DNA from: Candidatus Saccharimonadales bacterium
Lineage (GTDB): Bacteria; Patescibacteriota; Saccharimonadia; Saccharimonadales; UBA10212
Reading direction: 5' to 3'
DNA: 64,000 bases
NCBI GenBank assembly: GCA_049521895.1
Contig: JBEKOJ010000001.1
Span: forward strand, 354,717 to 418,716
The position numbers and the translations under genes were made by a program. The number at the start of each line of letters is the position of its first letter. The stretch's first letter is position 1. The notes under the pieces were generated by a model. That model saw only the letters and a program-made list of their open reading frames with translations, was not told the DNA's origin and ran no database searches. Positions 3,989 to 59,451 of this stretch are shown here, piece after piece.

Positions 3989-4022
3989 AAAAATCTCGCT
4001 CACAGCTTGGGCGAGATTTTTT
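3989..4022. terminator. intrinsic terminator, bidirectional shape
   Basis: AAAAATCTCGC-tcacagcttgg-GCGAGATTTTTT. Confidence 0.6.
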
Positions 4023-4150
4023 GGTACAGCAAGTGAGTAAAAGTTTACACCTTATTAGAGACGAGATGGTTCGTTGAAGGAAGACATTAGATATTTTTTT
4101 ATCAAGAATACCTATACACTAAACCCCATTGAGTAAGAGCAGTGAGTTAC
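4021..4150. repeat. intergenic repeat family, copy R-a (degenerate)
   Basis: TGGTACAGCAAGTGAGTAAAAGTTTACACCTTATTAG... aligns with 6464-6595 and 7170-7304. Confidence 0.55.
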
Positions 4151-4872: not shown

Positions 4873-4902
4873 TGGCGCAGTAAGTAGGAAAAAGTTTACA
4901 CG
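4873..4902. repeat. intergenic repeat family, copy R-b (short)
   Basis: TGGCGCAGTAAGTAGGAAAAAGTTTACACG matches the 5' block of R-c/R-d. Confidence 0.45.
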
Positions 4903-5787: not shown

Positions 5788-6393
5788 CTAGTATGCGGTT
5801 AGGTGGTTTACTATGTTAGCGAAATCTTGGGTGGTCTGTGTTTGGAGTGCAGTATCGTCGCACTCATTTGAAGCATCAAAATATATGTAATAATAGTTCC
5901 CCACTTTTGAGTAAGCGGGTGGCAGGGTGTTAGATGCTGCAAAATCTTGGCTGAGATATTCCTGCGCAGCCTCTGGAGTAGGGCTTTCTGGCGCGACATT
6001 GTCTGTTGGTAAGTACTTGCCTATATACCCCGCTGCACCGGCTGCAGTCGTACACATTGATGGACCGCCAGCATTGAGTTCAGCCGAACTAACATTCATT
6101 CTGTTTGATGAACTACTGTCTGGTTGATATTGAAGTGTCAAGGAACCACTGTATGGTGCCCTAACGCTCCATTGACTTATGGTGAAGTAATTAACGGCGG
6201 GTGTCGCAGTCTTTGTAGGCGAAGCAGCGGTTTTTGATGGAGCTGAGCTATTAGCTGCGGTAGTTGAAGTCGTTGCCTTGTGATGGTTCTTGTACACCAT
6301 CCAACCGACTACACCCAGCAGCACAACAATTATTAAAACTAACAGTATCTCAACTACTCCAAAACCCTGTTTATTTTTTTTCAATTTAGTCAT
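5788..6393 (-). CDS. type IV pilin-like protein
   Basis: MTKLKKNKQG/FGVVEILLVLIIVVLLGVVGW: Gly-Phe cleavage site, Glu+5, hydrophobic helix; S/T/A-rich linker. Confidence 0.7.
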   Translation of the reverse strand: MTKLKKNKQGFGVVEILLVLIIVVLLGVVGWMVYKNHHKATTSTTAANSSAPSKTAASPTKTATPAVNYFTISQWSVRAPYSGSLTLQYQPDSSSSNRMNVSSAELNAGGPSMCTTAAGAAGYIGKYLPTDNVAPESPTPEAAQEYLSQDFAASNTLPPAYSKVGNYYYIYFDASNECDDTALQTQTTQDFANIVNHLTAY

Positions 6394-6424: not shown

Positions 6425-6458
6425 TTTGCAACAAATAGACCCCTTTTCTACAGAGGCC
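6425..6458 (-). terminator. terminator-like hairpin at the end of repeat R-c
   Basis: Minus strand: GGCCUCU-guagaaa-AGGGGUC followed by a U-rich tract. Confidence 0.4.
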
Positions 6459-6463
6459 AAAGT

Positions 6464-6595
6464 GCTTATGCTTGGTGCAGTTAGTGGGTAAAAACTTACA
6501 CGCTATTAGGGATGAGATAGTTCGCTGGAGGAAGATTTTGGAAGTGCCGTATCAGGAGTACTTGTTGGGTAAGTAAGAGTTGGAAATTACACCGA
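6464..6595. repeat. intergenic repeat family, copy R-c
   Basis: GCTTATGCTTGGTGCAG...CGCTGGAGGAAGATTTTGGAAGTGCCGTATCAG...; first 14 nt equal the tRNA-Gly 3' end plus trailer. Confidence 0.7.
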
Positions 6596-7138: not shown

Positions 7139-7164
7139 GAAAAAGACCCCTTATCACAGAGGTC
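7139..7164 (-). terminator. intrinsic terminator at the end of repeat R-d
   Basis: Minus strand: GACCUCU-gugaua-AGGGGUC-UUUUU. Confidence 0.55.
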
Positions 7165-7169
7165 ATATT

Positions 7170-7304
7170 GCTTATGCTTGGTGCAGCAAGTAGGAAAATC
7201 TTTACACCTTATCAGGAATGAAATGGCTCGCTGGAGGAAGATTTTGGAAGTGCCGTATCAGAAGCATCTACTAGCTAAGTAGGAGTTGGGGGTTACACGA
7301 GTAG
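7170..7304. repeat. intergenic repeat family, copy R-d
   Basis: Aligns along about 135 nt with R-c, including a 34-nt perfect block CGCTGGAGGAAGATTTTGGAAGTGCCGTATCAG. Confidence 0.7.
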
Positions 7305-18159: not shown

Positions 18160-18534
18160 TTAGTTGTGCTTTTGACGTGTTTGCTCAGGCTCGCCCTGCA
18201 TGCCCAAATGATCAGTTTTCTCGAGTCCCAGAGAAATTCGCTTCCCAGGGTCCGGCTCTGGAACACTCACGGCGGGGTCTAGTAGAAATTCATAAAGAAT
18301 TCTAGCTTTTCTAATGTCCTCATCTAGAACGCGGATAACTGTAGCTAGGTCAAGCAAAGACTTGGATGGTAGTAGCAATCTGCGAGCTTCCATCTCATCG
18401 GCAATAACAGACACGTTATTGCGCCTGTCGTGCGCCAATGATAATGCTTGTAGGGCAACTGCCAGTCTTTGAGCTCTTTCCAGAGTCGACTGATTAGCCT
18501 CTAGCGCCACTCTCTCCTTAAAATCACTTGTCAT
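18160..18534 (-). CDS. hypothetical helical protein translationally coupled to uvrA
   Basis: 124 aa; its ATG overlaps the uvrA TGA (ATGA). Confidence 0.5.
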
Positions 18535-21344
18535 TTAAGTGTTTTGGCTAGGAATTGGCCGGTATAGCTGGTTTTGATTCTGGCGACCTGCTCCGGCGTG
18601 CCTTCAGCGATAATTCTGCCGCCGGCGTCGCCGCCTTCGGGGCCCATATCAATAATGTGATCGGCGTTTTTAATCATATCCAGGTTGTGCTCAATCACGA
18701 TCATGCTATTGCCGCCGTCTACCAGCGCGTGTAGGACATCCAACAGTTTGGCCTCGTCGGCCATGTGCAAGCCGGTTGTTGGTTCGTCCAAGATGTAAAG
18801 CGTGCGGCCGGTAGCGCGACGCGACAGTTCAGAAGCTAGCTTGATGCGTTGGGCTTCCCCGCCGGACAACGTCGTAGCCGGCTGGCCCAAGGTTATATAG
18901 CCCAAGCCAACGTCAACTAAGGTTTGCAGTTTGCGGGCGATGGCCGGAATATTGGTAAAAAATTCCAGAGCCTGTTCGCAGGTCATTGCCAACACGTCAC
19001 TAATAGTCTTGCCTTTGTAATGGATTTCCAACGCTTCGCGGTTATAGCGTTTACCGTGGCAGACCTCGCAGGTAACGTAAACATCCGGCAAAAAGTGCAT
19101 TTCTATCTTGATTACACCATCACCGGCACAGTTTTCGCAGCGGCCGCCGCGCACATTAAAGCTGAAGCGGCCCGGACCATAACCGCGCAGTCGAGCCTCT
19201 GGAGTGGTTGAAAATAATTCACGGATGGGCGTAAAAACACCAGTATAGGTCGCGGGGTTAGAGCGTGGAGTGCGGCCAATTGGCGATTGATCTATGACAA
19301 TCGCTTTATCAAGATTATTAATGCCCTCAATATCGTCATGTCGTCCTGGCACTGTTTGGGCACGCATTAACCTAGCTGAGAGCTCGCGCGCCAAAATGTC
19401 GTTTACCAAGCTGGATTTGCCGGAGCCAGATACACCGCTAACCACCACTAGCTGTCCCAACGGTATAGTTACATCCAGGTTTTTAAGATTATTTTCGCGG
19501 GCACCTCTTACGACCAATCGCTTGCCATTGCCCGGCCGGTGGGTCTTAGGCCTTGGAATAAACTTTTCGTGGCGCAAAAACTCCGCTGTGATACTGTTTT
19601 TAGCCTTGGCGACTTCATCTGGAGTACCGGTGGCTACCACCTCGCCACCATGGATACCGGCTCCGGGGCCAATGTCTACTAGGAAGTCGGCGCTACGAAT
19701 AGTTTCTTCGTCGTGTTCTACCACGATTACGCTATTCCCCAGATCGCGCAATTTCTCTAGGGTATTAAGCAGGCGTTTGTTGTCGCGCTTGTGCAAGCCG
19801 ATGCTGGGTTCATCTAAAACGTACAGAACTCCCTGCAAGCCCGAGCCGATCTGGGTTGCCAAGCGGATGCGCTGGGCTTCCCCGCCGCTCAAACCGACGG
19901 CGCCACGGGCCAGTGTAAGATAATTCAAGCCAACGTCCTGCAAAAATCTCAGGCGGGCATTGATTTCTTTTAGAATTTGATGGGCAATTTTCATCTCGGC
20001 GTCTGATAGTTTAAGGTTCTTGAAGAAATCACCCGCGTTGTCAATCGACAGCTCGCAAATGTCCATGATATTTTGCCCGACAACAGTTATGGCCAGCACT
20101 TCCGGTTTAAGGCGCCGGCCTCCGCAAGCATTGCATGGCCGCTCTTGCATAAAACGCTCTATGTCGTGGCGGATAAAATCGCTCTCAGTTTCTTTGTGGC
20201 GGCGCTCTAAGTTGGATATTACACCCTCGTAAGTAGTATTAAACGAGCGGCCGGGACCCAGGCTGATTTTATAGGTTTCACTACCTGTGCCATATAAGAT
20301 TTTACCCAGCTGGTTTTTGCTCAGTTCGCCTGTCGGTTGGTGGATAGAAAACCCATAGTGCTCGGCCACGGCCTGCATTTTTCTCATGTACCAAGCGTCC
20401 GTATTTATACGGTTGTATGGCCTAATAGCCCCTTCGGCGATAGTCAGCCGGCCGTTAGGAATTACCAGCTCCGGATCAACCTCTAGGCGATTGCCCAGGC
20501 CGGTGCAAACCGGACAGGCGCCATACGGCGAATTAAAACTGAAGGTCCGCGGTTCCAGGTCTGGTATAGCCACGTCAGGGTGGTCGACACAGGCATACTT
20601 AAGGCTATATAGCTTGTCCTGCTTGTTATCGGCGTCATTAATTATCAATAAGCCCTCGGTTATATCAAAGGCCTGCTCCACACTTTGCACTAACCGGGTA
20701 CGGCTGTCTTCATTATTAACCAAGCGGTCTACGACAATTTCTATTTTGTGTTTGTAGTTTTTATCCAAGGTCGGAAATTCATCCAAGGCATAAATTACGC
20801 CATCTACCCGAGCCCGGGCAAAACCGACGCGCAAATACTGTTCCGGGATATGTTCAAAGGCGCCTTTTTTATCTATTACCACTGGTGCCAAGATTATCAG
20901 TCTGGCACCTGGGCTGCCGGCCACAATTTGGTCGACCACGGCTGTAGTGGTTTGCCGCTGCACCGGCTTGGCGCAGACCGGGCAGTGCGGAATGCCGATG
21001 CGCGCGTATAGTAGACGTAAATAATCATAGATTTCGGTCACGGTTGCTACTGTACTGCGCGGATTACGGCTGGCGGATTTTTGGTCGATGCTAATGGCCG
21101 GGCTAAGGCCGTCAATCTGGTCGACATCCGGTTTTTCCATCAAGCCCAAAAATTGGCGGGCGTAAGCACTTAGTGATTCTACATAGCGGCGCTGGCCCTC
21201 GGCGTAAATGGTATCGAAAGCCAAAGAAGATTTACCGGAACCCGAAAGCCCGGTTATAACCACCAGCTTACCGCGCGGAATCTCAAGGGAAATATTCTTG
21301 AGGTTGTGCTCGCGCGCGCCCCGAATAGATATAACTTCACTCAT
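18531..21344 (-). CDS. uvrA: excinuclease ABC subunit A
   Basis: 937 aa; two ABC modules ([18 protein letters not shown]), LSGGE signatures, CxxC zinc modules. Confidence 0.95.
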
Positions 21345-21441
21345 TAAACCGAACGATTATACACAAATTTGCGGTTTTTTTCTAGACCCTAAGGTGGTAC
21401 TACGAACACGAGCGCAAGCATAAGCATATAAATAAATATTA

Positions 21442-21495: not shown

Positions 21496-21783
21496 ATGCT
21501 TAATGATCTAATCTTCTTGGGGCAAATCCCCGGAACCAATTTTCAGATAACTTTTACCGACATCGTGGACATATCTCTACTCAGCCTGGCTCTACTTCTT
21601 TGCGGCTACCTTTATTATCTGGAGTTGAAAGCAGCGTGGGACAGGAAATTCTCCGAGAAGTTGCAGAACCAGCGTTTTATTCTGCCGGTACAAGCGATTG
21701 GCCATATAAGTTTAGCTCTTCCAGCAAATAACGATCCTGTTCAGCTAGACCTGTTTGTTTTTCCAATTCCCCAAGACGCTTAA
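21496..21783 (+). CDS. small hypothetical membrane protein
   Basis: Has its own promoter and a weak SD (TGGAG); one TM helix; the 3' third overlaps the convergent sbcB end, so the true stop and extent are uncertain. Confidence 0.4.
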   Translation: MLNDLIFLGQIPGTNFQITFTDIVDISLLSLALLLCGYLYYLELKAAWDRKFSEKLQNQRFILPVQAIGHISLALPANNDPVQLDLFVFPIPQDA

Positions 21784-23266
21784 AGAAATGGGCGGCGCGG
21801 CTAGCCCCACCGCCTTCCATCAGACGCTGGCGGCGGAATTTTTCCCATTGTTCTTGCTCGCCGGGGCTGAGTGATTTGGGATAATTACGGGCTTTATATA
21901 GCGGTAGCAACAGTTTTAGCCTCTCATCAGCAAAATCCAGCTGAAGATCAGCCAGCTTTTCCGCGTCCGCGGCCCGGACTACGCGCATTCTGGTTCTATC
22001 AGTATCATTAATGAAACCATCGTAGAGCTGTTCGTCGACTTTCTGCGGGTCGGCAATTATCCCGGCTTGGACTTTGGGCCAGATAATTTCGGCGGCGGCT
22101 ACCAGTTTGTCGCCAAAATCCTCAGCCTTTAGCAGCTTGGCCAGATTGGTATCAACTTCGGCGCTGTTAATTTTCAGCCGGCTAGCGCTTTTGGCGTCCA
22201 AAACTGACAACGGGGCAATAGTTGGGCATCTGTTATAAGACAGGACCTTTACAGGAAAATACGGCTCCGCAACACGCACTGCGCCAACCTGCTTACTGGC
22301 AGAGCCAGTAACTCTGCTGGCGCTTGCGGCGGATTGCGATGTTGCCGGCTGTGACTGCTCCTTCGCAGTACCATTACTGTACAGCTCAGTCCGCTGCTCG
22401 CCGGCGCCTTGCACTCCACTCGCCTGCGTGCTGCTGGAAGACCGATATTGCCATGCTGCCGCGAGCTCTGTCGGAGACATTGACAAAAACGGGGTAGGGT
22501 CAATGCGCAAATCATATACCAGGGCAGCATTTTTGCTGGGGTCTGGCGCAACCATTACCGCTATGGTAGTTTTTTCGTATTCAGCCGGGTAGCGTCCGCT
22601 GGTATAGATAAAGGGTCTGCCCGTGGCGACCAGTGCGGCGATTTTATTTTTGTCGCGCAGTTTGAGTAGATAATTAAACAGTTTTGGCTGCTTGGTTTTT
22701 ACCAGATTGGCCAGCGCAATTACGGCTTTAACATCGCTTAGGGCGTTGTGGGCGTTAGCGTGCTCCAGTTTATTAATCTGACTGATATCTTCCAAGCGGT
22801 TACTGGCTTTGCCATCAGGGGCAAATGGCCATTTTATACCTTCCGGCCTGAGCGCCCGCGTCATACGTACCACGTCAAGCAGATCCCACTTGCCACGGCT
22901 ATCTTTCCATTGCCACTCGTAAGCATCCACGAAGTTGCGCCAGAGTGTGAAGCGTATAAATTCATCGTCAAAACGGATATTATTATAACCAGCAGCGATG
23001 GTATCCGGCGTAAATACTTGACGTGTTAAGTATTTTGTAAACTCAGCTTCGGTGACCCCTTCGGTGATTGTCTGTTGCGGAGTAATACCATGCACCATCA
23101 CGGCGTCCGGTTCCGGCAAAATATCGGATGTCATCTTAACTAGCGTGTTATCAGGCTCGCCTACTGGTTTAAGGTTCATGTCAGTTCGTTGCCCGGCAAA
23201 CTGCATGATACGTGCCAAGCGAGGGTTGAAGCCGCTGGTTTCCAGATCATAAAAATAAAAAGTCAT
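21677..23266 (-). CDS. sbcB: exodeoxyribonuclease I
   Basis: N-terminal DEDDh motif (FYFYDLETSG) with ExoI-like architecture; contains an S/T/A/Q low-complexity insertion. Confidence 0.8.
   Translation of the reverse strand: MTFYFYDLETSGFNPRLARIMQFAGQRTDMNLKPVGEPDNTLVKMTSDILPEPDAVMVHGITPQQTITEGVTEAEFTKYLTRQVFTPDTIAAGYNNIRFDDEFIRFTLWRNFVDAYEWQWKDSRGKWDLLDVVRMTRALRPEGIKWPFAPDGKASNRLEDISQINKLEHANAHNALSDVKAVIALANLVKTKQPKLFNYLLKLRDKNKIAALVATGRPFIYTSGRYPAEYEKTTIAVMVAPDPSKNAALVYDLRIDPTPFLSMSPTELAAAWQYRSSSSTQASGVQGAGEQRTELYSNGTAKEQSQPATSQSAASASRVTGSASKQVGAVRVAEPYFPVKVLSYNRCPTIAPLSVLDAKSASRLKINSAEVDTNLAKLLKAEDFGDKLVAAAEIIWPKVQAGIIADPQKVDEQLYDGFINDTDRTRMRVVRAADAEKLADLQLDFADERLKLLLPLYKARNYPKSLSPGEQEQWEKFRRQRLMEGGGASRAAHFFKRLGELEKQTGLAEQDRYLLEELNLYGQSLVPAE
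23013..23033 (+). promoter_or_regulatory. intragenic copy of the marR-type palindromic box
   Basis: AATACTTGACGTGTTAAGTAT(TTT), 24/25 identical to 1330-1354; lies antisense inside sbcB. Confidence 0.45.
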
Positions 23267-29027: not shown

Positions 29028-30326
29028 TTATATTCTTAACATCTTATTGAGTTTATCCTTAACGGAGGCGTTATCGCCAGCCACGCCGCTATTTATAGTG
29101 TCCATACCGACTCTAAGTAAACCCATGGCCGTGATAAAGGTATGGTCGTTAACATCGCCGGTGGTATCGGTGATACCTACCACCTCATCTGGTTGTATGT
29201 GGTGCACAGTAGGCTTTTTGGTAAACGGCAGGCTTTTGTACCAGTCGCCGTCCTGAAGTTGATCCATCAACATGTGCAAGGAAGAACCGCCGCCGCACAA
29301 CAACAGGTGCTGCGGCAGATGGTCTAATTTATCAAATTCGGAAAGCGCCAGTTCTACGCCGCTAAGCCAGACGTTCAGAGTTTTTGACAAGGCTTTTTCT
29401 ATCTCGGCCTTTTTTGCACCTTCTTGGGCAGCGCTTAGGGCCAGCTTTAGCGATTCTGCTTTAGTGAAATCTATGTCCAACTCACGCTCAATAGCATGGG
29501 TAAAGGCCCGGCCGCCGATGCCAAACATCTTAGTACCTTCTACGCCGCCTTCGTTGACTACGGCTATATCTGTAGTGCCGCCGCCGACATCCATTAGTAC
29601 GGCGCTTATAGAAGTGCTGGCGTTATCGCCAACTACCGAACGGGCTACAGCGAACGGCTCAGCCGCCACCGCCAAAAGCTCCAAATCAAGTTCGGCGGCT
29701 GTGCGCTCCAGTGCGCCGATATGGATCATCGGCGCGAAGGCGGTGTACATCTCTACCACCACGTCGCGTCCCTGGAAACCTACCGGATTGGTAACTTTAT
29801 AGCCATCGATGTCAATACGTACCAACGCACTGTTTACCAAGCGCACTTCTACGTCTTTGCCGCCCAGCTCCCAAGCCAGTTGCTGCCGTGCTTTGGCCTC
29901 AGCGCGCTCTTGTACCAACTCTATGATGCGCGACATCTCATCAATGCTCAGTTCTTTTTCGGAATTTTTGCGGGTAAAACGTACCGTGCTGGTAGTGCCT
30001 TTTACGAGTTCGCCGGCGATACCCAGTATAGCCGTGCGGGCGCTCACGCCGGCCTGTTGCTCGGCCTTAGCCAGGGCTTTGTCGCAGTTGGCTACCACAG
30101 CTTCGATATCAGAAATTGCGCCGGCTTGCATATCAGACAGGTTCTGATGGGCTCGCCCGACCCCTATAATCTCCACGCTATCGCCGATAACCCGGCCAAC
30201 AAGAGCTTTTATAAATTCGGTGCCCACATCTAAGGCCACTATATATTTGCCCACCGGTTTACCCCGCCTGGCAACTTCTTTGACTTTGGGGAGTTTGCTC
30301 CTTAGAGCTTTAGCTTTATCAAGCAT
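29028..30326 (-). CDS. ftsA: actin-like ATPase, FtsA-like cell division protein
   Basis: ALDVGTEFIKA and DVGGGTTDIAV phosphate-binding motifs; start moved to the ATG (MLDKAKAL) because the upstream GTG extension lies in the C1 RNA helix. Confidence 0.7.
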   Translation of the reverse strand: MLDKAKALRSKLPKVKEVARRGKPVGKYIVALDVGTEFIKALVGRVIGDSVEIIGVGRAHQNLSDMQAGAISDIEAVVANCDKALAKAEQQAGVSARTAILGIAGELVKGTTSTVRFTRKNSEKELSIDEMSRIIELVQERAEAKARQQLAWELGGKDVEVRLVNSALVRIDIDGYKVTNPVGFQGRDVVVEMYTAFAPMIHIGALERTAAELDLELLAVAAEPFAVARSVVGDNASTSISAVLMDVGGGTTDIAVVNEGGVEGTKMFGIGGRAFTHAIERELDIDFTKAESLKLALSAAQEGAKKAEIEKALSKTLNVWLSGVELALSEFDKLDHLPQHLLLCGGGSSLHMLMDQLQDGDWYKSLPFTKKPTVHHIQPDEVVGITDTTGDVNDHTFITAMGLLRVGMDTINSGVAGDNASVKDKLNKMLRI

Positions 30327-30348
30327 ATTATCAGATTGATTATAGCAC

Positions 30349-30514
30349 GCTAACACCTGCACCGTCCGCCCTGCTGCCCGGCAAAGCCGGGCATTCCGGC
30401 GGACTTTTGGCGCATTACGGCGTCAGAGTCTCCGCTACTCCTTCACGGTATTGTACATACAGCTCAGTTTGTTGCTCGACTCTTCCTTGTACTGCATCCA
30501 GGTGCAGGGTTAGC
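30349..30514 (-). ncRNA. candidate structured RNA, family copy C1
   Basis: Closing helix GCUAAC-CCUGCACC / GGUGCAGG-U-GUUAGC; P2 AGAGUC/GACUCU; terminal hairpin UGCCCGGC-UUU-GCCGGGCA; homologous to 45163-45327 and 56087-56257. Confidence 0.55.
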
Positions 30515-30517
30515 AAT

Positions 30518-32443
30518 TTATTGTAGGACGGCTTTGATACGGCGCACGCCCGCCGAGGACGCTTCTTCTTTCATAATGTGGAACTTCTTGCCGCCTTCGC
30601 CGATTTGGCCGGTGTGCTCTACATGCGGGCCGCCGCAAATTTCGCGGCTGAAAGGTTTAACCGAATCACCAATAGTATAAACTTTAACTTTGTCGCCATA
30701 TTTATCACCAAAAGCACCGCTCGCAGTTTTTAGAGCATTTTTGGTTGATTCTTCTTTCCAAGTCACCGGCAAATCTTCGGCAATTTTTTCATTGACGATT
30801 TTTTCTACCTCCGCTAACTGCTCTGGTGTGACTTTTTCTGGGTGACTAAAGTCAAAACGCGTGCGCTCGGAAGTAATATTGCTGCCGCGCTGCACCACAT
30901 GACCGCCCAAAACATTTTTGAGCGCCTGGTACATCAAATGCGTCACGGTGTGATACTTAACAACTTGCTCGGAATGGTCCGCCAGCCCACCCTTGAACAT
31001 GCCAGTTGTTGCTGTACGCGAACGCTTACGCTGGTTCTCCATTAGTTCTTCAAAGTCTTTCTCTAAATTTTCATCTATTTTCATTTTTAGACGTTTTGCT
31101 TCTTCCTCGGAAAGTTCAATCGGAAAACCATAGGTATCAAAGAGAGTGAAAGCCATTTTACCATCAAGTGTTGCCCCTGGCATACTAATTAATTCTCCGT
31201 ATAAACGGTGAATGGGGGTTGGTTTCAAAATATATTTTTCAAACTCGTGAAGGCCTTTACGGAGGGTTTGGCGGAAGAGTTTTTCTTCGCGGGCAAAGGC
31301 TTCCAGTACCTCTTTTTTGCGTTTGGCCACTTCTGGAAAATCTTCTTTGTATAAATCTACAATGACGGGTGCGATTTTTTCGCATAAATCCTGCTCTATG
31401 CCCAAATCAAAGGCGTAGCGGATGGCCCGGCGCAGCAAGCGGCGTAAAACGTAACCACGGTCTTTATTGCTAGCTACCACGCCATTTGCGCCCAAAAAGG
31501 TCGCGGCACGCAAGTGGTCGGCTATTACGCGCATACTATGTGAGTGCTCTTCGTATTTTTTACTGCTTAACTTTTCTAACCTGTCAATAATTGGTTTGAG
31601 CAGGTTCGTTTGATACGCATCACCAGTACCCAAAGCGGCTGCGGAAATGCGCTCTAAGCCGCCGCCAAAATCCACATTAGGTTCGGGTAAGTGCTCAAAC
31701 TGCTCACCTACTTTTTTATAAGTCATAAACACACTGTTGCCAATTTCTAGAAACCGGCCGCACTCGCAGTTGGGATGGCAGTGCTCACCAAATTCGTCTT
31801 TGTGGGGTGATTCAGTATCGAAAAAAACTTCACTGTCGGGACCACCGGGCTCGCCTTCGCGCATATCTGCCGGTCCACCTTCGCGGCTCCACCAATTACA
31901 AGATGCATCGTAATAAAAAATCCGCTCGCCCGGCTTCATGCCACGCACGTAGCCATTCTCAGTATTCCCAATATCCCCAGTTTTGGCTTCTACATTTTTA
32001 GCGTTAAAAAGCTTTTGCCATATTTCCGTGGCTTCAGTGTCCTTATGAATGCCGTTATTTTCATCGCCGATAAAACACGTCACATAGAGTCTGGTCGGAT
32101 CCAGACCGATAACATCTGTCAGAAACTCAAAAAACCAGGGAAGCTGTTCTTTCTTGAAATAATCACCCAAGCTCCAGTTACCTAGCATTTCAAAAAAAGT
32201 AAAATGTCGACCATCGCCAATGTCTTTGATATCTGGAGTTCTAACGCATGGCTGTGAGTTAACTAGACGATTACCGTTCGGGTGTTTTTCGCCCAGCAAA
32301 TACGGTACTAGTGGCTGCATGCCGCTGCCGGTAAACAGAGTCGTCGGGTCGTCTTGGGGCACTAAGCTAGCCCGCGGAATAACTTTGTGTCCGCGTGCCT
32401 TAAAGAACTCCAAATATTTTTTGCGTATTTCCTGCGCCGTCAT
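30518..32443 (-). CDS. alaS: alanine--tRNA ligase (short form, 641 aa)
   Basis: Class II AlaRS core, editing HxxxH (HTVTHL), CGGPHV; lacks a long C-terminal domain. Confidence 0.85.
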   Translation of the reverse strand: MTAQEIRKKYLEFFKARGHKVIPRASLVPQDDPTTLFTGSGMQPLVPYLLGEKHPNGNRLVNSQPCVRTPDIKDIGDGRHFTFFEMLGNWSLGDYFKKEQLPWFFEFLTDVIGLDPTRLYVTCFIGDENNGIHKDTEATEIWQKLFNAKNVEAKTGDIGNTENGYVRGMKPGERIFYYDASCNWWSREGGPADMREGEPGGPDSEVFFDTESPHKDEFGEHCHPNCECGRFLEIGNSVFMTYKKVGEQFEHLPEPNVDFGGGLERISAAALGTGDAYQTNLLKPIIDRLEKLSSKKYEEHSHSMRVIADHLRAATFLGANGVVASNKDRGYVLRRLLRRAIRYAFDLGIEQDLCEKIAPVIVDLYKEDFPEVAKRKKEVLEAFAREEKLFRQTLRKGLHEFEKYILKPTPIHRLYGELISMPGATLDGKMAFTLFDTYGFPIELSEEEAKRLKMKIDENLEKDFEELMENQRKRSRTATTGMFKGGLADHSEQVVKYHTVTHLMYQALKNVLGGHVVQRGSNITSERTRFDFSHPEKVTPEQLAEVEKIVNEKIAEDLPVTWKEESTKNALKTASGAFGDKYGDKVKVYTIGDSVKPFSREICGGPHVEHTGQIGEGGKKFHIMKEEASSAGVRRIKAVLQ

Positions 32444-44459: not shown

Positions 44460-44933
44460 TCAGACCAGCGCGAAACTGGGGACGAAGGCGGGTCGCTCTC
44501 CTAGCGCATCCCTCTGGATGCCACTCCGAGAGAACTCAAGCCAAACGTCCTCGGCCGTCAAGTCATCGGGGCGGTACATCATTGCACCGCACACGAGACC
44601 CCATATGGCCTGAGTGTCAGTGGCGTGAGGTCTGATACCGGCGAGCCTGACGCAGGCTGCCAGCAACTCAGTGCGTACGGCCGTGCGATTCCCGAAAAGA
44701 AACGCGCCGTCGTAGAAGCGGCGGGCTTCCCGTCGGTTGCCCAACGCGAAAAGCGTTGCCGAGGCGTGGATGTAGACTCGCAAGAACACGCGTCGTGTTC
44801 TGCGGTGGCCGAAACGGTTGCAAGTCTCGTGGTAGCGGATAGCCGCTACTGACCTACAAGGTCGTTTCGTCATCCTTCTGGACCCGAATGCCTCAACTGC
44901 GTTGGCTGCTGCGGCAATAAGACCTTCCGACAT
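44460..44933 (-). CDS. hypothetical protein on a high-GC island
   Basis: 157 aa from an ATG with GAGGAGG 8 nt upstream; Arg-rich, helical, with no motif I recognise; GC clearly above the flanks. Confidence 0.55.
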   Translation of the reverse strand: MSEGLIAAAANAVEAFGSRRMTKRPCRSVAAIRYHETCNRFGHRRTRRVFLRVYIHASATLFALGNRREARRFYDGAFLFGNRTAVRTELLAACVRLAGIRPHATDTQAIWGLVCGAMMYRPDDLTAEDVWLEFSRSGIQRDALGERPAFVPSFALV

Positions 44934-45162
44934 TGGTACAGCCTCCTCTTGTTTGCACAACACGACTTTGAGACCAAAGAGACTATTAACGAAAGACCTT
45001 GGCTCTCACCACCTTCTTAAGGGTACGCGTCACTTTTAGGCGGACGCACGTTTGCCCTTTTAGTCTTCAGAGGCACTTGCGATTCGTCATCACAAGCTTA
45101 CTGCCTCCCCGCTGGGCTCTGGTGCTTGCTGACTTCAAGCCCAGCGGACAGGCAACAAAATT

Positions 45163-45327
45163 CGCGCTTCACATCTGGATGCAGTGCAAGGAAGCGGCGA
45201 GTAGCACAATGAGCTGTATTCTAAATACAGTGATTGAGCAACGGAGCCGCTGACACAGCAATGCGCCAGAAGCATTGGCGGTGCATCCGTCTTCGGCGGA
45301 TGGCAGGACAATGCGTTGTGAAGTGCG
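45163..45327 (+). ncRNA. candidate structured RNA, family copy C2
   Basis: P1 CGCGCUUCACA/UGUGAAGUGCG; P2 AGCGGC/GCCGCU; P3 CUGUAUU-cua-AAUACAG; hairpin CAAUGC-gccagaa-GCAUUG; hairpin CAUCCGUC-uuc-GGCGGAUG; a terminator follows. Confidence 0.6.
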
Positions 45328-45330
45328 AAT

Positions 45331-45365
45331 AAAAAACGACTGCTTCTTGCTGCAGTCGTTGTTTC
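45331..45365. terminator. intrinsic terminator (bidirectional shape)
   Basis: AAAAAACGACTGC-ttcttgct-GCAGTCGTTGTTT. Confidence 0.7.
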
Positions 45366-45538: not shown

Positions 45539-46402
45539 GTGATATCTATTTTCCAAGCGATAATTCTAGGTTTGCTGCAGGGCTTAACCGAACTTTTTCC
45601 CATATCCAGCCTTGGCCACAGTGTGATCATCCCCAAGCTCTTGAGCTGGAATATTAACCAAAACAGCTCCAATTTTCTGACTTTCTTGGTGGCCACCCAT
45701 TTGGCCACCGCCATTGTGCTGTTCATCTTCTTTTGGGATGAGTGGGTGAAGATAATAAAAGCGATTTTCAGGTCGCTGCGGGCACGTTATATCGCCAGCG
45801 ACGATGCCTATGCCAAGCTGGGGTGGCTGCTAGTAGTGGGCACGATTCCGGCAGGCGTTATCGGCCTACTGTTCCAGGATTCGCTACGTAAATTCTTCGC
45901 TTCTGCCCAATACGCCGCCGGCTTTTTGATTATCAACGGATTGGTATTGATGTTAGCGGAGCGTTTGCGAAAAAATAATACTAGGGGCCAAGCCGCCGCC
46001 GCGGCCAGCACTAAAAGCATCGCCAAGTTGCGTTGGTCCCGGGCAGTTTACATCGGTACGGCCCAGGCGGCCGCTCTCTTCCCCGGTATTTCGCGCTCTG
46101 GTTCCTCTATGGCCGGTGGTCTTTTAACGGGCTTAAACAACGAAGATGCTGCCCGCTTTAGTTTCTTGTTAGCGACTCCAATAATTGGCGCAGCGGCACT
46201 ACTTAAACTGCCCGATTTATTCACGGCTTCTGCTGCATCACTGCGAGGAGCAGCCATAGCTGGAGCCATTGCAGCGGCGATAGCTGCCTACTTATCTGTA
46301 CGTTTCCTAATTAAGTATTTCCAGACCAATACGCTCAAGCCGTTTGCGCTTTACTGTTTGGCGGCCGGGATTATTGCAAGTCTTTACTTTGCCCTGACTT
46401 AG
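45539..46402 (+). CDS. uppP: undecaprenyl-diphosphate phosphatase
   Basis: BacA-family pattern (LLQGLTELFPISSLGH...PGISRSG); GTG start. Confidence 0.85.
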   Translation: MISIFQAIILGLLQGLTELFPISSLGHSVIIPKLLSWNINQNSSNFLTFLVATHLATAIVLFIFFWDEWVKIIKAIFRSLRARYIASDDAYAKLGWLLVVGTIPAGVIGLLFQDSLRKFFASAQYAAGFLIINGLVLMLAERLRKNNTRGQAAAAASTKSIAKLRWSRAVYIGTAQAAALFPGISRSGSSMAGGLLTGLNNEDAARFSFLLATPIIGAAALLKLPDLFTASAASLRGAAIAGAIAAAIAAYLSVRFLIKYFQTNTLKPFALYCLAAGIIASLYFALT

Positions 46403-55762: not shown

Positions 55763-55837
<75 letters not shown>

Positions 55838-56086
55838 TCGACCACTTTACATTTTACATTTTACAGTTCACATTGCATACAGAATTCAAGGGTTATTCTG
55901 GATACCAAAAATCCCTTGCTGCTATCTCCACCATAGCCCACAAGGGATTTACTGGTTATTTCAATTTTTATTTTGGATCGGAGCGGTCAGTCAGTGCTCT
56001 GGTTCCTAAAATTAACCCTAGCACATTTAGACGTTTTTCTCAACCTGTTATCCACAGGTTTAGCTTTATTTAAAACGCTGCGCGCT

Positions 56087-56257
56087 CGAAACTAGCAGAC
56101 TCGAGCGTAGTACAAGGCGCAAGCGCGGAGCGCAAAGGAAACGTATTGAAATACGTTGACTGCGCCCCACAGCTTGCAACGATGTAATGCGCCGAGAGCA
56201 TTACCCGGTGTGCCTGGCTAAGCCGGGCAGCAGGGGGAATGCGGTCTGTTAGTTTCG
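56087..56257 (+). ncRNA. candidate structured RNA, family copy C3
   Basis: P1 CGAAACUAGCAGAC/GUCUGUUAGUUUCG; P2 GGCGCA/UGCGCC; P3 ACGUAUU-gaa-AAUACGU; GUAAUGC-gccgaga-GCAUUAC; UGCCUGGC-uaa-GCCGGGCA. Confidence 0.55.
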
Positions 56258-56935
56258 GCGGCGGCGGTTAACGACGTAGTGCCCAACTGCACCGAGTCCG
56301 GAAGCACCGACGAACAATTCAGCTACATCGCCAGGACCAGTGTTAGGCAAGGCTGTAGATTTGGTAACAGCAGCCGGAGTAACAATTGGTTTTGCTGGTG
56401 TGACCGGTGCAGGACAGCTAACTTTGGCTTTAAAGTTCACAAACTCTACCGTAGAACCGGCCAGGTTGCCTACATTCACACCACTAGTTGTAATAGTGTC
56501 AGGTAAAGTCCTGATGACAGCACCACTACCATTGTAAAGTGTAGTTGTACCGTTTTCGTAGACTAAGTTCCCGTTAGACACACCATTTACCGTAACGCTA
56601 CCGGAAGCACCAGCGCTAGCACCTTCCGCGGGTGTAGCTGTGGCGGTAGAGGTGCTTGCAGCACCGCTAGGCAGTGTAGCGTTAACTACAAGGCTCGTAA
56701 GACCACCGAAGGCGCCGTTGTGAAGGTCAATACTGTATTGGACTTCTTCGTTGCAGGCAGCGCTGGCAGAAGCGCCGTAGCTACCACTTTGTGTAATGTT
56801 TTTTACGACGTAGAAATTAGAACCGCTGAGCAGCTGACCAGGACTATCTGCAAAAACTGGAGATAGACCAAAGACAGCCATAGCAAGGACAGTGAAGCCG
56901 GTCGTAAGAGCGGCTAGTTTAGATTGAATTTTCAT
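56249..56935 (-). CDS. LPXTG-anchored surface protein
   Basis: Signal peptide, then C-terminal LPNTG, hydrophobic segment and RRRRN sorting signal. Confidence 0.8.
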   Translation of the reverse strand: MKIQSKLAALTTGFTVLAMAVFGLSPVFADSPGQLLSGSNFYVVKNITQSGSYGASASAACNEEVQYSIDLHNGAFGGLTSLVVNATLPSGAASTSTATATPAEGASAGASGSVTVNGVSNGNLVYENGTTTLYNGSGAVIRTLPDTITTSGVNVGNLAGSTVEFVNFKAKVSCPAPVTPAKPIVTPAAVTKSTALPNTGPGDVAELFVGASGLGAVGHYVVNRRRRN

Positions 56936-57135: not shown

Positions 57136-59001
57136 TCACGGATGCACGTCCGGGTCGTGGATCGGGAACGGGGTGGTCGCGCTCACAGCCAGGACGGCTG
57201 AGTTCGTAACGTCCGTTACCGTCACCGTGTAGGTGTCGTTGCCGCCCGGCGGAATTTCCGTCGGAGCGACGTAGTTGCACGGCGCGTACACACGGTTGTA
57301 GCCCGCCGACGTGAACGTCGTCGAGGCCAAGCACGTGAAGTGCCCGTAGGACGTGCTGAACACCACCGTGATCGTGTCGCCACTCGGCGAGTACACGTCA
57401 CAGTAGAGATTGGCATACTGCTGCCCGACCGCATCCTCCTCCGGCTGGTAGCAGTTGTTGATCAGCATCGTCGGCGTCGGAGGAGACGGCGGCGAAGCTA
57501 CCGAGCAGCTGACACTCGCCTCAGCCGAAGCCAAGGCAAGCGCGTACGCTGCTGCATACGCTTCTGCATAGGTCGTCGCCTCAGCTGAGGCTGTTGCCGA
57601 GGCCGAGGCCGTCGTGCCATCAGAACACGACGCTGAAGCCGTAGCAGTAGCCGTCGCCGAAACAACAATTACCGGCGGCGGAGCCGTTACCGTCTTGCGG
57701 TTGACGAACGGAAACGTGTACGTCTCGCCCGCAACCGCGGTGTGCGTGATGCACGTCTGGTCGGGCGTGTATCCGCCCGTTGACGTCTCACACTCTTGGA
57801 CGACAGCTCCGGCGTTGAACGTACCGAGATCCCGCGACTGGCCGCTGGCGGCGTTCGTCGTGGACGACGTTGCCGATCCGTTGACCGATTGCGAGAACCC
57901 GAACTCACCGCCGTTGAGCGTGACCTGCGTACCGTTCAGGTACGCCGTCTTGCCAAGCAACAGGTGAGCCGTTGGCGTCGGCGGCGGAGCCGTTACCGTC
58001 TTGCGGTTGACGAACGGAAACGTGTACGTCTCGCCCGCAACCGCGGTGTGCGTGATGCACGTCTGGTCGGGCGTGTATCCGCCCGTTGACGTCTCACACT
58101 CTTGGACGACAGCTCCGGCGTTGAACGTACCGAGATCCCGCGACTGGCCGCTGGCGGCGTTCGTCGTGGACGACGTTGCCGATCCGTTGACCGATTGCGA
58201 GAACCCGAACTCACCGCCGTTGAGCGTGACCTGCGTACCGTTCAGGTACGCCGTCTTGCCAAGCAACAGGTGAGCCGTTGGCGTCGGCGGCGGAGCCGGT
58301 CCGCACTTGAGCGTGACCCAGGACTTGACGTGCAGGGAAACCTTCTCCCTCAGCTTGAGGTCCAGGGAACCCTGGACCTTGCCCCAGGTGGTTGCACGAG
58401 TGAAGCCGGAAACCGTCGTTGTCAACACGCCGCTTACCTTCTGCCCCGAGGGGCATGTGATGGAAACGGGCTTGCTGAGCTTGCGGTTGAACCGGATGAC
58501 CGTGCCCTTGCTGAATGGCTTCCAGGGAAGGACGACGACCGAGACCGAAGGCTTGAGGCGCGGATTTCCGCACCTGACCATCAACTCGACCGTCTTCTGG
58601 CTCACGATGTTGATCATGAGAAAGACCTTCACGTACTGGCTGCCGTTGTGGTCAGCAACTGGCACGACTGTTCCGCCGCCTGTGATGCCCGAGTTCGTAC
58701 TGCCCGGGGACGCATGGGGTGCGTAGCCCTCAGCACGATATTCGGACAGAACGAAGTCCGGACGATCCGCCTGCTGGGCGATAGTCATCGCGTAGCTCGG
58801 ATCCCAGGCTGCACGACCTTCGACTTGCTGCAGCGCGTGCTGCGGGTTGTTGGGGTCGATGCCGTTCGGGAACGGTCGGTACAGGTTCACCGAGGCGTTA
58901 ACCTTGGTGATGGAGTTAGTGCTGGCGAGCGCGGGGCTCGCGATCATGAGGAACGCCCCGACCACAATGGCCGGGACGCTAAGACTACGCATGACGCGCA
59001 T
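57136..59001 (-). CDS. secreted adhesin-like protein with two identical Cna-B/SpaA-like repeats, high-GC codon usage
   Basis: Start at MRVMRSLSVPAIVVGAFLMIASPALA (signal peptide); 102-aa unit (..LNGGEFGF..VQECETSTGGYTPD..) repeated twice; Cys-bounded Ala/Ser/Thr tract; no LPXTG. Confidence 0.7.
   Translation of the reverse strand: MRVMRSLSVPAIVVGAFLMIASPALASTNSITKVNASVNLYRPFPNGIDPNNPQHALQQVEGRAAWDPSYAMTIAQQADRPDFVLSEYRAEGYAPHASPGSTNSGITGGGTVVPVADHNGSQYVKVFLMINIVSQKTVELMVRCGNPRLKPSVSVVVLPWKPFSKGTVIRFNRKLSKPVSITCPSGQKVSGVLTTTVSGFTRATTWGKVQGSLDLKLREKVSLHVKSWVTLKCGPAPPPTPTAHLLLGKTAYLNGTQVTLNGGEFGFSQSVNGSATSSTTNAASGQSRDLGTFNAGAVVQECETSTGGYTPDQTCITHTAVAGETYTFPFVNRKTVTAPPPTPTAHLLLGKTAYLNGTQVTLNGGEFGFSQSVNGSATSSTTNAASGQSRDLGTFNAGAVVQECETSTGGYTPDQTCITHTAVAGETYTFPFVNRKTVTAPPPVIVVSATATATASASCSDGTTASASATASAEATTYAEAYAAAYALALASAEASVSCSVASPPSPPTPTMLINNCYQPEEDAVGQQYANLYCDVYSPSGDTITVVFSTSYGHFTCLASTTFTSAGYNRVYAPCNYVAPTEIPPGGNDTYTVTVTDVTNSAVLAVSATTPFPIHDPDVHP
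57673..58299. repeat. perfect 306-bp tandem duplication (2 copies plus about 15 bp)
   Basis: 57673-57978 equals 57979-58284; the alternate-frame ORFs at 57687-57908 and 57993-58214 are letter-identical. Confidence 0.9.
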
Positions 59002-59451
59002 CTTTAGCACTTCCCTTCTGTGATCGGGGACAAGAAAGCACAGCACCAGCCGATCGAACCGGTGCTGTGCGACCACCCCCAAGAAACAGGGGCGGAATAA
59101 TCTAATGACGAGGAGTTCGTCACCAAATTACTCCGCCCATTGCTTAGAAGGATTATGACCGCGCAACACGGAATGATCAGTTTGAAAATTGGTAGTCGGT
59201 TAAGGACTTACTTTGCTTGCGAGCCAAAAAGCTCTAGCAAAAACAAAATAAAGCCCAATAACTATCTAGCTTGCCTGTAAACAAAATCTTTTGTTTTTAG
59301 ACAAACTTACTAATTTGTTAAGGTTATCACCTCACCCACTACTGCTTCCGAAAGGGTTACTTATCTGTTACCCCTCCGTAAGAGATTCTTGCCCAGTTCT
59401 TATCTGTAAGAGCTGCGACCCACCTCTTCGCTGTCAAGCGAGGATGCCCAT

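Follow-up and report, generated by a model that had tools for sequence, protein, structure and literature searches.

A probable RPE-like structured repeat between alaS and ftsA in a Saccharimonadales bacterium and its relatives across the Saccharibacteria

Introduction

The closest described counterparts of the element analyzed here are the Rickettsia palindromic elements (RPEs), dispersed hairpin-like repeats of ~100–170 nt that occur in tens of copies in a small host-dependent genome, lie both between genes and in frame within unrelated housekeeping genes, where a conserved peptide is read in one frame, and have no recognised transposase (PMC10969869). A second group is formed by ERIC, Correia/NEMIS, BOX, REPIN (with RAYT) and the Coxiella QMITE, which are short, non-autonomous and found between genes in either orientation; such MITE-type repeats (miniature inverted-repeat transposable elements) give co-transcribed RNA hairpins, adjoin or create promoters and occasionally have in-frame intragenic copies (PMC10969869). 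Here we examine a stretch of 64,000 nucleotides (the window) from a Candidatus Saccharimonadales bacterium (assembly GCA_049521895.1, contig JBEKOJ010000001.1, positions 354,717 to 418,716 of the forward strand), and in it a folded element of 166 nt, C1, that separates alaS from an ftsA-like gene.

We propose that C1 is probably the resident copy of a Saccharibacteria-wide, RPE-like family of structured repeats and not a feature specific to this locus, which would place an RPE-/MITE-like structured repeat, and an unusually conserved one, in a phylum of the Candidate Phyla Radiation. Like RPEs, the Saccharibacteria repeat is dispersed, multi-copy and stably folded (four copies in 64 kb, several per genome assembly), and it lies in frame in unrelated housekeeping open reading frames (ORFs) while being absent from their homologues. 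To our knowledge, structured repeats that sit in frame, and in a single frame, within housekeeping genes have so far been considered almost exclusive to Rickettsia. The family differs in belonging to another phylum (the two are likened by description and not by sequence), in forming a three-way junction with invariant unpaired motifs instead of a simple palindrome, in its clear strand-specific covariation and locus-specific outer closing helix, and in orthologous copies that are far more conserved than host synonymous sites. With MITEs it shares short length, placement between genes in either orientation and some in-frame copies, whereas MITEs are bounded by conserved terminal inverted repeats and flanked by target-site duplications. 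In the Saccharibacteria repeat only the inner 5–7 bp of the closing helix P1 are conserved and no consistent duplication is seen, and neither a related insertion sequence nor a gene of RAYT type came to light here, no whole-genome protein census having been made. The literature searched holds no account of repeats of this kind from Saccharibacteria or the Candidate Phyla Radiation, and the family is apparently undescribed so far.

Results

C1 is one of four copies of a folded repeat in the window

All coordinates are positions in the window, and the C1 locus is read on the minus strand, along which it comprises the following features.

30518–32443 (−), alaS, 641 aa, a short form ending after the SAD motif of the editing domain (ORF list and Pfam)
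30349–30514 (−), C1 repeat copy, 166 nt, with closing helix P1, long imperfect arm P2 and hairpin arm P3
30501–30514 (−), 5′ strand of C1 P1, GCUAACCCUGCACC, which pairs with GGUGCAGGUGUUAGC
30408–30500 (−), C1 P2 arm, which carries AGUACAAGG (30493–30485) and ACGCCGUAAUGCGCC (30423–30409), the motifs best conserved in the family
30364–30404 (−), C1 P3 hairpin arm, whose internal loop has the conserved motif AGCAGG at 30375–30370
30349–30363 (−), 3′ strand of C1 P1, GGUGCAGGUGUUAGC, which holds the spurious GTG start at 30362–30360
30339–30347 (−), extended −10-like box TGCTATAAT of ftsA, host sequence outside C1
29028–30326 (−), ftsA-like gene, 432 aa, ATG at 30326–30324, Pfam FtsA

The alaS frame matches the Pfam families tRNA-synt_2c (2.9e-116) and tRNA_SAD and closes with TAA at 30520–30518, a stop that is ancestral because the C-terminus preceding it (...GVRRIKAVLQ) is conserved in relatives. 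Three nucleotides (ATT) lie between this codon and the start of C1 at 30514, so that the original prediction, made from the letters of this DNA, was right to let the element begin 3 nt past alaS. It had also put 4 nt between C1 and an extended −10 element, a spacing that holds for the TATAAT hexamer, whereas only 1 nt separates C1 from the TG of the extended −10. The minimum free energy of the C1 fold is −87.8 kcal/mol, compared with −56.0 ± 4.2 in dinucleotide shuffles (z = −7.7); C1 scores 156.8 bits against the family covariance model (E 2e-45), and its P2 arm includes the U·G wobble and G-A mismatch that are invariant columns in an alignment of 59 copies.

Three means of detection, namely nhmmer, a motif pattern and the covariance model, each return exactly four copies in the window, C1 and three others that match the model with E values of 1e-37 to 1e-50.

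45160–45330 (+), C2, intergenic, divergent from ORF 44460–44963 (−) and upstream of uppP/bacA 45539–46402 (+)
56086–56258 (+), C3, antisense to tRNA-Glu 55763–55837 (−) and to ORF 56249–56935 (−)
22265–22438 (−), C4, in frame inside the sbcB ORF 21677–23266 (−)

The stop codon of ORF 56249–56935 (−), at 56249–56251, falls inside the 3′ strand of C3 P1, and no GC-skew switch in the window separates the minus-strand from the plus-strand copies.

Beyond the window, the pattern AGTRCAAGG...ACNNNGYAATSCGCC...RGCAGG, for which the chance expectation in the window is zero, occurs at 62 loci in GTDB species genomes, nearly all of them Candidatus Saccharibacteria/Saccharimonadales and several with multiple matches; 55 of the 62 have the full Saccharibacteria-type architecture. 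The covariance model finds extra copies, for a total of more than 60 in Saccharibacteria genomes, and across the family the repeat measures 150–190 nt. In Rfam 15, searched with C1, C2, the whole window and 12 loci, no family reaches its gathering threshold and nothing relevant appears at E values up to 10, the best sub-threshold match being Poribacteria-1 with 18.7 bits where 74.2 are needed. Resemblances to hammerhead, twister, SRP-like and retron-like RNAs likewise find no Rfam support. A phage or plasmid origin was rejected: a blastn search of phage and plasmid collections gave no match to the repeat, and the one viral sequence with the pattern does not match the covariance model.

Outside the Saccharibacteria, seven pattern matches lie in Bacteroidales, Barnesiella and gammaproteobacterial assemblies (L005, L042, L047, L061, L029, L036 and L048). 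They share only the hairpin made of P1 and the P2 base (GGAUGSAGUGCAAGG...GCAAUSCGCC), have no P3 arm, score 26–51 bits against the model and belong to no Rfam family; in one of them (L005, 6640–7160) a perfect 121-nt tandem array of four units stands between enolase and metallo-beta-lactamase-fold genes. These outside hairpins may represent a wider superfamily, mis-binned sequences or convergence.

The family folds into a three-way junction on one strand

Across the 59-copy alignment the repeat forms a three-way junction with 53 consensus pairs, 41 of which show compensatory double changes. Standard pairs fill 92.3% of the paired cells, compared with 72.7% in column shuffles (none of 500 reaching the observed value) and 26–40% with slid partners, and cells changed on both sides number 712 as against 212 in the shuffles. 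Conservation is highest at the P2 base, where the invariant U·G wobble and G-A mismatch are accompanied by the motifs AGURCAAGG and GYAAUGCGCC; a GCAGG motif in the P3 internal loop is likewise conserved across copies. The closing helix P1 extends over 12–17 bp, the inner 5–7 bp being conserved (YGCA/TGCR) and the outer 6–10 bp locus-specific.

The fold belongs to one strand. The alifold consensus energy is −60.3 for the forward strand and −32.3 for its reverse complement, the forward strand is the more stable in 58 of 59 copies, and G-U outnumbers A-C by 240 to 59. When only departures from the commonest pair are counted, G-U remains in excess by about 2:1 whatever the context class. The GCTAAC...GTTAGC ends of C1 had suggested an integron attC site; the ends of other copies are unrelated to these, and GCTAAC also occurs at an element-free site, so this candidate was rejected.

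Relatives with and without the element share the alaS stop and the ftsA promoter

The same junction in related genomes is found both with and without the element. A relative whose FtsA is 89% identical (L067) has an orthologous copy in the same place, with P1 strands GCUAACAUCUGCA/UGCAGGUGUUAGC. Conversely, L064 and L068 (82%) have only TAA-GCTAACAGATAGGTCGTGG-TATAAT, 19 nt, L086 (79%) has TAG-TTCTCCGCAGGTGTTAGCGTGT-TATAAT, and L072 has a 23-nt spacer; none of these gives a model match, and the stop-to-(−10) spacer in relatives without the element is thus 19–23 nt. In L063 (89%) an extra gene takes the place of the element, whereas L079 (79%) carries a copy, a possible orthologue, behind a different upstream gene; this copy ends exactly 4 nt before TATAAT and, at 74% identity, is no closer to C1 than paralogues are (median 70%). 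On the FtsA tree the element-present and element-free states are interleaved. The promoter and the alaS stop are independent of the element.

The extra gene in some relatives encodes ~330 aa without a Pfam match and lies between alaS and ftsA (L063, 2426–3436). The X-type loci L069, L070, L097, L071, L085 and L079 have it as well, and its presence and absence are also interleaved on the FtsA tree, a pattern that points to repeated loss or gain at the alaS–ftsA junction.

The ftsA gene starts at the ATG at 30326, not at the GTG at 30362. A database protein 100% identical to the ftsA product has the 432 aa of the ATG form, hundreds of homologues are 431–441 aa long, and the motif M[LI][DE]KAK..LK.KLPK, read from the ATG, is conserved across 12 aligned homologues, none of which has anything corresponding to the 12 residues that the GTG start would add. 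The ATG at 30326 is in frame with the GTG at 30362–30360 and lies 12 nt from TATAAT, with no AGGAGG-like Shine-Dalgarno motif upstream, and the original prediction had described this spacing and this lack correctly; its doubt about the GTG start of the ORF list is likewise upheld by the identical 432-aa protein and by N-terminal conservation that begins only at the ATG. The GTG at 30362 is thus an artefact of an open frame running into the helix.

A TG[N]TATAAT box precedes ftsA in 18 genomes. Every one of the 17 orthologous loci inspected has it, and in nearly all of them it lies 10–12 nt from the start codon, the exceptions being L063 (27 nt) and L073, where the box is much further upstream. 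It is kept whatever the upstream gene (alaS, a 336-aa membrane-protein gene or another) and whether the element is present or absent, and it is found in the element-free genomes L064, L068, L086, L072 and L063. Extended −10 promoters work without a −35 element, and a two-hexamer scan gave no −35 match for the ftsA promoter; C1 occupies the place where a −35 would lie. The most fitting interpretation of the signal is an extended −10 promoter, ancestral and independent of a −35, that gives an mRNA leader of 3–5 nt, and the predicted ftsA mRNA fits a leaderless type without Shine-Dalgarno sequence. Conservation in all 17 loci makes the proposed extended −10 credible, whereas the idea that C1 overlaps or carries the ftsA promoter fails, the box being present also in genomes without the element. 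Because the promoter-like box is independent of both upstream gene and element, it is ancestral, and C1 simply abuts it. The likeness to extended −10 leaderless promoters (TGCTATAAT, no −35, 10–12 nt to the ATG, no Shine-Dalgarno) accordingly describes the predicted host promoter beside C1 and not the element.

A second candidate leaderless-type start occurs elsewhere in the window, at ORF 18531–21344 (937 aa, UvrA-like by length and position only), where the stretch 21345–21369 (−) holds GTGTATAAT followed by 11 nt up to the ATG and no Shine-Dalgarno is seen.

C1 is probably not a dedicated 3′ end or terminator of alaS

C1 would be transcribed as the 3′ end of the alaS mRNA, since it begins 3 nt past the stop and no terminator intervenes. 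The helix is followed by GUGCUAUAAUCAAUC after P1, with no U-run, and a terminator scan of the minus strand is negative at C1; the role of terminator surrogate raised in the original prediction is thereby unlikely, there being no U-run after the helix. The element would on this evidence be neither a terminator nor the source of the ftsA promoter.

A broader version of the same proposal holds that C1 serves specifically as an alaS 3′ untranslated region (UTR), terminator surrogate or insulator between alaS and ftsA. The very stable fold close behind the stop, its shared orientation with alaS and ftsA and the conservation of the arrangement in L067 all suit such a role, as would the near-continuous helix of P1 and the P2 base, which could be a site for a double-strand-specific RNase. 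Relatives nevertheless manage with the short 19–23-nt spacer, the expected U-run and minus-strand terminator are lacking, and the family-wide randomness of orientation described below means that a sense 3′ UTR cannot be the selected function. A dedicated alaS 3′ UTR or ftsA regulator is furthermore not a property of the family, since its members take both orientations and occur within ORFs as well as in rRNA spacers, and relatives with the same promoter lack C1. We therefore regard this explanation as improbable.

Copies lie in either orientation between genes and largely in a single frame within them

A census covered 65 copies, and for the intergenic ones the strand of each neighbour relative to the element was recorded; a few are only partly classified where a contig ends. 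The intergenic copies are distributed as follows.

both neighbours on the element's strand, 13 copies
both neighbours opposite to the element, 16 copies
upstream neighbour on the same strand and downstream neighbour opposite, 6 copies
upstream neighbour opposite and downstream neighbour on the same strand, 5 copies

Orientation relative to neighbours is random, and the intergenic spacers in which copies lie are very short. In one Saccharimonadales genome (L014) a sense copy lies in the 16S-23S spacer (2074–2257, +) and an antisense copy in the 23S-5S spacer (5873–6059, −); as these two flank the 23S gene, the family extends into rRNA spacers as well.

Folding on a constant strand whatever the context class, even where both neighbours run antisense to the copy, would also be expected of independent small-RNA genes, a paralogous family transcribed from its own promoters on the folding strand. 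Copies divergent from the upstream gene usually have 25–400 nt of upstream spacer, and C2 is followed by a terminator-like hairpin. Against such genes, no promoter-like motif at a fixed distance was revealed by consensus scans around C1–C3 or when the upstream flank of every copy was searched by position for −10-like hexamers, no terminator follows C1 or C3, and a promoter would not fit beside the in-ORF copies or those placed 5–25 nt past an upstream stop. This possibility strikes us as very unlikely, even more so than an alaS-specific role. The hairpin after C2, at 45335–45360, follows the element directly and has A- and T-runs on both sides, and the scan calls it on the minus strand.

Thirteen copies lie within ORFs, every one of them sense. 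Twelve are in long ORFs and are read in one common frame, and the thirteenth (L056, in a 149-aa ORF) is in a different one. The encoded peptides are related and hydrophilic, of the type ..LDGVQG..EQR..TQQSAKS.. or ..LDAVQGS.EER..DTAMRQE.., and their hosts, assigned by Pfam, include exonuclease I, NAD-dependent DNA ligase (LigA), UvrA, UvrD/PcrA and a Mur ligase, together with a DinB-type polymerase, Dus (two sites), TsaB-like, KhpB/Jag and NYN-domain proteins. Peptide-profile and single-peptide protein searches for in-frame copies returned only short ORFs called on repeats; publicly deposited Saccharimonadales "hypothetical proteins" of 46–93 aa (P0241–P0264) are ORFs called on intergenic copies.

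The window's own example is C4 in sbcB. SbcB measures 529 aa here as compared with 472–479 aa in nearly all of 120 homologues, and C4 adds 55 residues (about aa 277–334) between the W.xR and PYFPVK motifs. The closest relative (L066) lacks 165 nt exactly at this point, and ~115 other homologues are also without the insertion. In an AlphaFold model, which is poor overall (mean predicted local distance difference test score, pLDDT, of 54), residues 275–334 have a pLDDT of ~25, and the prediction shows the C4 segment as unstructured between confident blocks. A different insertion, of 28 residues, occurs at the same point in the homologue P0196.

Orthologous copies are conserved beyond host synonymous sites

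Between C1 and its L067 orthologue the element is 84% identical, as compared with 58% at four-fold degenerate sites of ftsA, and the P3 arm shows 2 differences. Among 58 pairs, 45 are unchanged, 3 changed compensatorily and 5 changed on one side with pairing kept; the few that count as broken are due to a loop in which the register is shifted by one base. At the Mur ligase locus (L049 vs. L060) the element is 87% identical while the four-fold sites of the host gene stand at 36% and the host proteins at 69%. Because paralogues within a genome are only ~70% identical, the similarity of orthologues is not due to concerted evolution, and the copies are under purifying selection at the nucleotide level.

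C1 may have a local effect on RNA stability, processing or read-through, a notion we keep in play given the clear purifying selection on its orthologue in L067. It could plausibly protect the 3′ end as a structure or be processed as a double-strand site.

Discussion

Together, these data suggest a mechanism in which the copies are RPE-like insertions, present or absent at orthologous sites, and in which C1 would fill the spacer between the ancestral alaS stop and the ancestral ftsA −10, the only dispensable stretch there. Any effect of C1 would be local at most: as a stable structure at the 3′ end, or as a site of double-strand processing, it would keep alaS read-through RNA apart from the ftsA transcript. 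Read-through RNA from alaS would probably be poorly translated for ftsA, because the ftsA ATG is without a Shine-Dalgarno sequence, and ftsA expression would depend on its own promoter.

It is important to note that several observations weigh against this reading. We infer mobility from the distribution of copies only, since no partner transposase or reverse transcriptase was identified, no whole-genome protein census having been made. Among the copies there is no conserved terminal inverted repeat beyond the inner 5–7 bp of P1, and no convincing target-site duplication: flank matches of at least 3 nt occur in 7 of 59, with ~1.5 expected, and these have no consistent length or motif, the helix boundaries being uncertain. 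At the alaS–ftsA junction, the outer GCUAAC of the 5′ strand of C1 P1 also stands right after the alaS stop in the element-free L064 and L068, and GCAGGTGTTAGC of its 3′ strand lies at the same distance from TATAAT in the element-free L086; these sequences could be what a deletion left of an older insertion, or else traces of a small hairpin that existed beforehand, and since L086 and L064 carry halves of the outer P1 of C1, the change at this junction may have been an insertion or a deletion. Antisense frames are open in 54–65% of copies and sense frames in 7–13%, yet no antisense in-ORF copy exists; with antisense frames so often open, frame filtering alone is insufficient to account for the sense-only bias. 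Conservation above that of synonymous sites is, moreover, not what would be expected of decaying selfish DNA and points to function, RPEs themselves being described as decaying.

A further difficulty lies in how the 3′ strand of P1 meets host signals, which random insertion does not predict. In at least ten same-strand copies a start codon lies 0–3 nt past this strand (L062/L012, L033/L043, L051, L006, L015, L018 and L059/L028), and the genes that start there include those for MutM, Obg, a MurC-like ligase, L27, MetRS and NrdR; the region upstream of obg in the window is too diverged to inform as an empty site for the L018 copy. GGAG or GAGG occurs inside the strand at four loci or more, namely those of MetRS (metG), L27 (rpmA), NrdR (nrdR) and the L006 gene, and a Shine-Dalgarno sequence or ATG lies within or adjoins it at ~7 loci. 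P1 of the three ftsA copies stops 4 nt short of TATAAT and 1 nt short of TGn. Twelve copies have a convergent gene whose stop codon falls between −10 and +11 nt relative to the P1 end, and the last codons of these convergent genes overlap the repeat (56249–56251 in the window among them). On the 5′ side, a spacer of 6–22 nt is usually left.

Such contacts could be explained if the repeats were cis-acting RNA modules maintained by the host, ligand aptamers or protein platforms in which P1 gates the adjacent signal, C1 then modulating ftsA or alaS–ftsA coupling. The invariant unpaired nucleotides and U·G wobble of the heavily covarying three-way junction are consistent with this proposal, as are its strand specificity, the purifying selection at orthologous loci and the start codons, GGAG/GAGG sequences and ftsA boxes that P1 adjoins. 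It fits poorly with the 16–18 intergenic copies antisense to both neighbours, the 13 copies within coding sequence and the others in rRNA spacers, with the functional diversity of adjacent genes, which are unrelated, and with close relatives that have the same ftsA promoter and lack the element; nor was an alternative pairing or terminator platform seen, no analysis of alternative structures having been made. A translational riboswitch or RNA thermometer would resemble the family in its multi-helix junction and in the variable P1 that meets a Shine-Dalgarno sequence or start codon at several loci, but differs from it in that copies also lie antisense, in ORFs and in rRNA spacers, next to unrelated genes and with variable presence in close relatives; the family as a whole shows no consistent sense placement in the 5′ UTR of a coherent gene set. 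We consider a cis-acting module of this kind unlikely, albeit less so than a dedicated alaS 3′ UTR. The same doubtful standing applies to a more general proposal, in which the repeats are a host-maintained, strand-specific nucleic-acid module whose junction binds a common factor or signal and whose locus-specific P1 pairs with the adjacent host signal, be it a Shine-Dalgarno sequence or start codon, the −10 edge or a gene end. Were it true, many unrelated housekeeping genes, ftsA among them, would share one input, and the module would be retained even inside coding sequence. Relatedly, an insertion process may make the 5′ arm complementary to the 3′ flank of its target.

If the repeats are indeed an RPE-like family, they would be a second case, unrelated to that of Rickettsia but again in a reduced lineage that depends on hosts, and would suggest that genome reduction has this outcome repeatedly. 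Purifying selection that exceeds the selection on host genes raises the question of what role a 170-nt fold plays in a ~1 Mb genome. For annotation, the repeats lead to wrong start calls, as with the GTG of ftsA, and inflate the lengths of SbcB, LigA and UvrA; a family covariance model would permit them to be masked and counted.

Other repeats in the window

Two further repetitive features of the window are distinct from the family described above. A second, unrelated intergenic repeat family (4021–4091, 4873–4901, 6441–6592 and 7147–7298) comprises 3–4 copies of 71–152 nt that are 76–86% identical and lie by short ORFs near a tRNA cluster. Inside the 648-aa ORF 57136–59082 (−), where G+C is higher, 306 nt (102 codons) are perfectly duplicated in tandem at 57673–58278, and a third, diverged unit starts at 58285.

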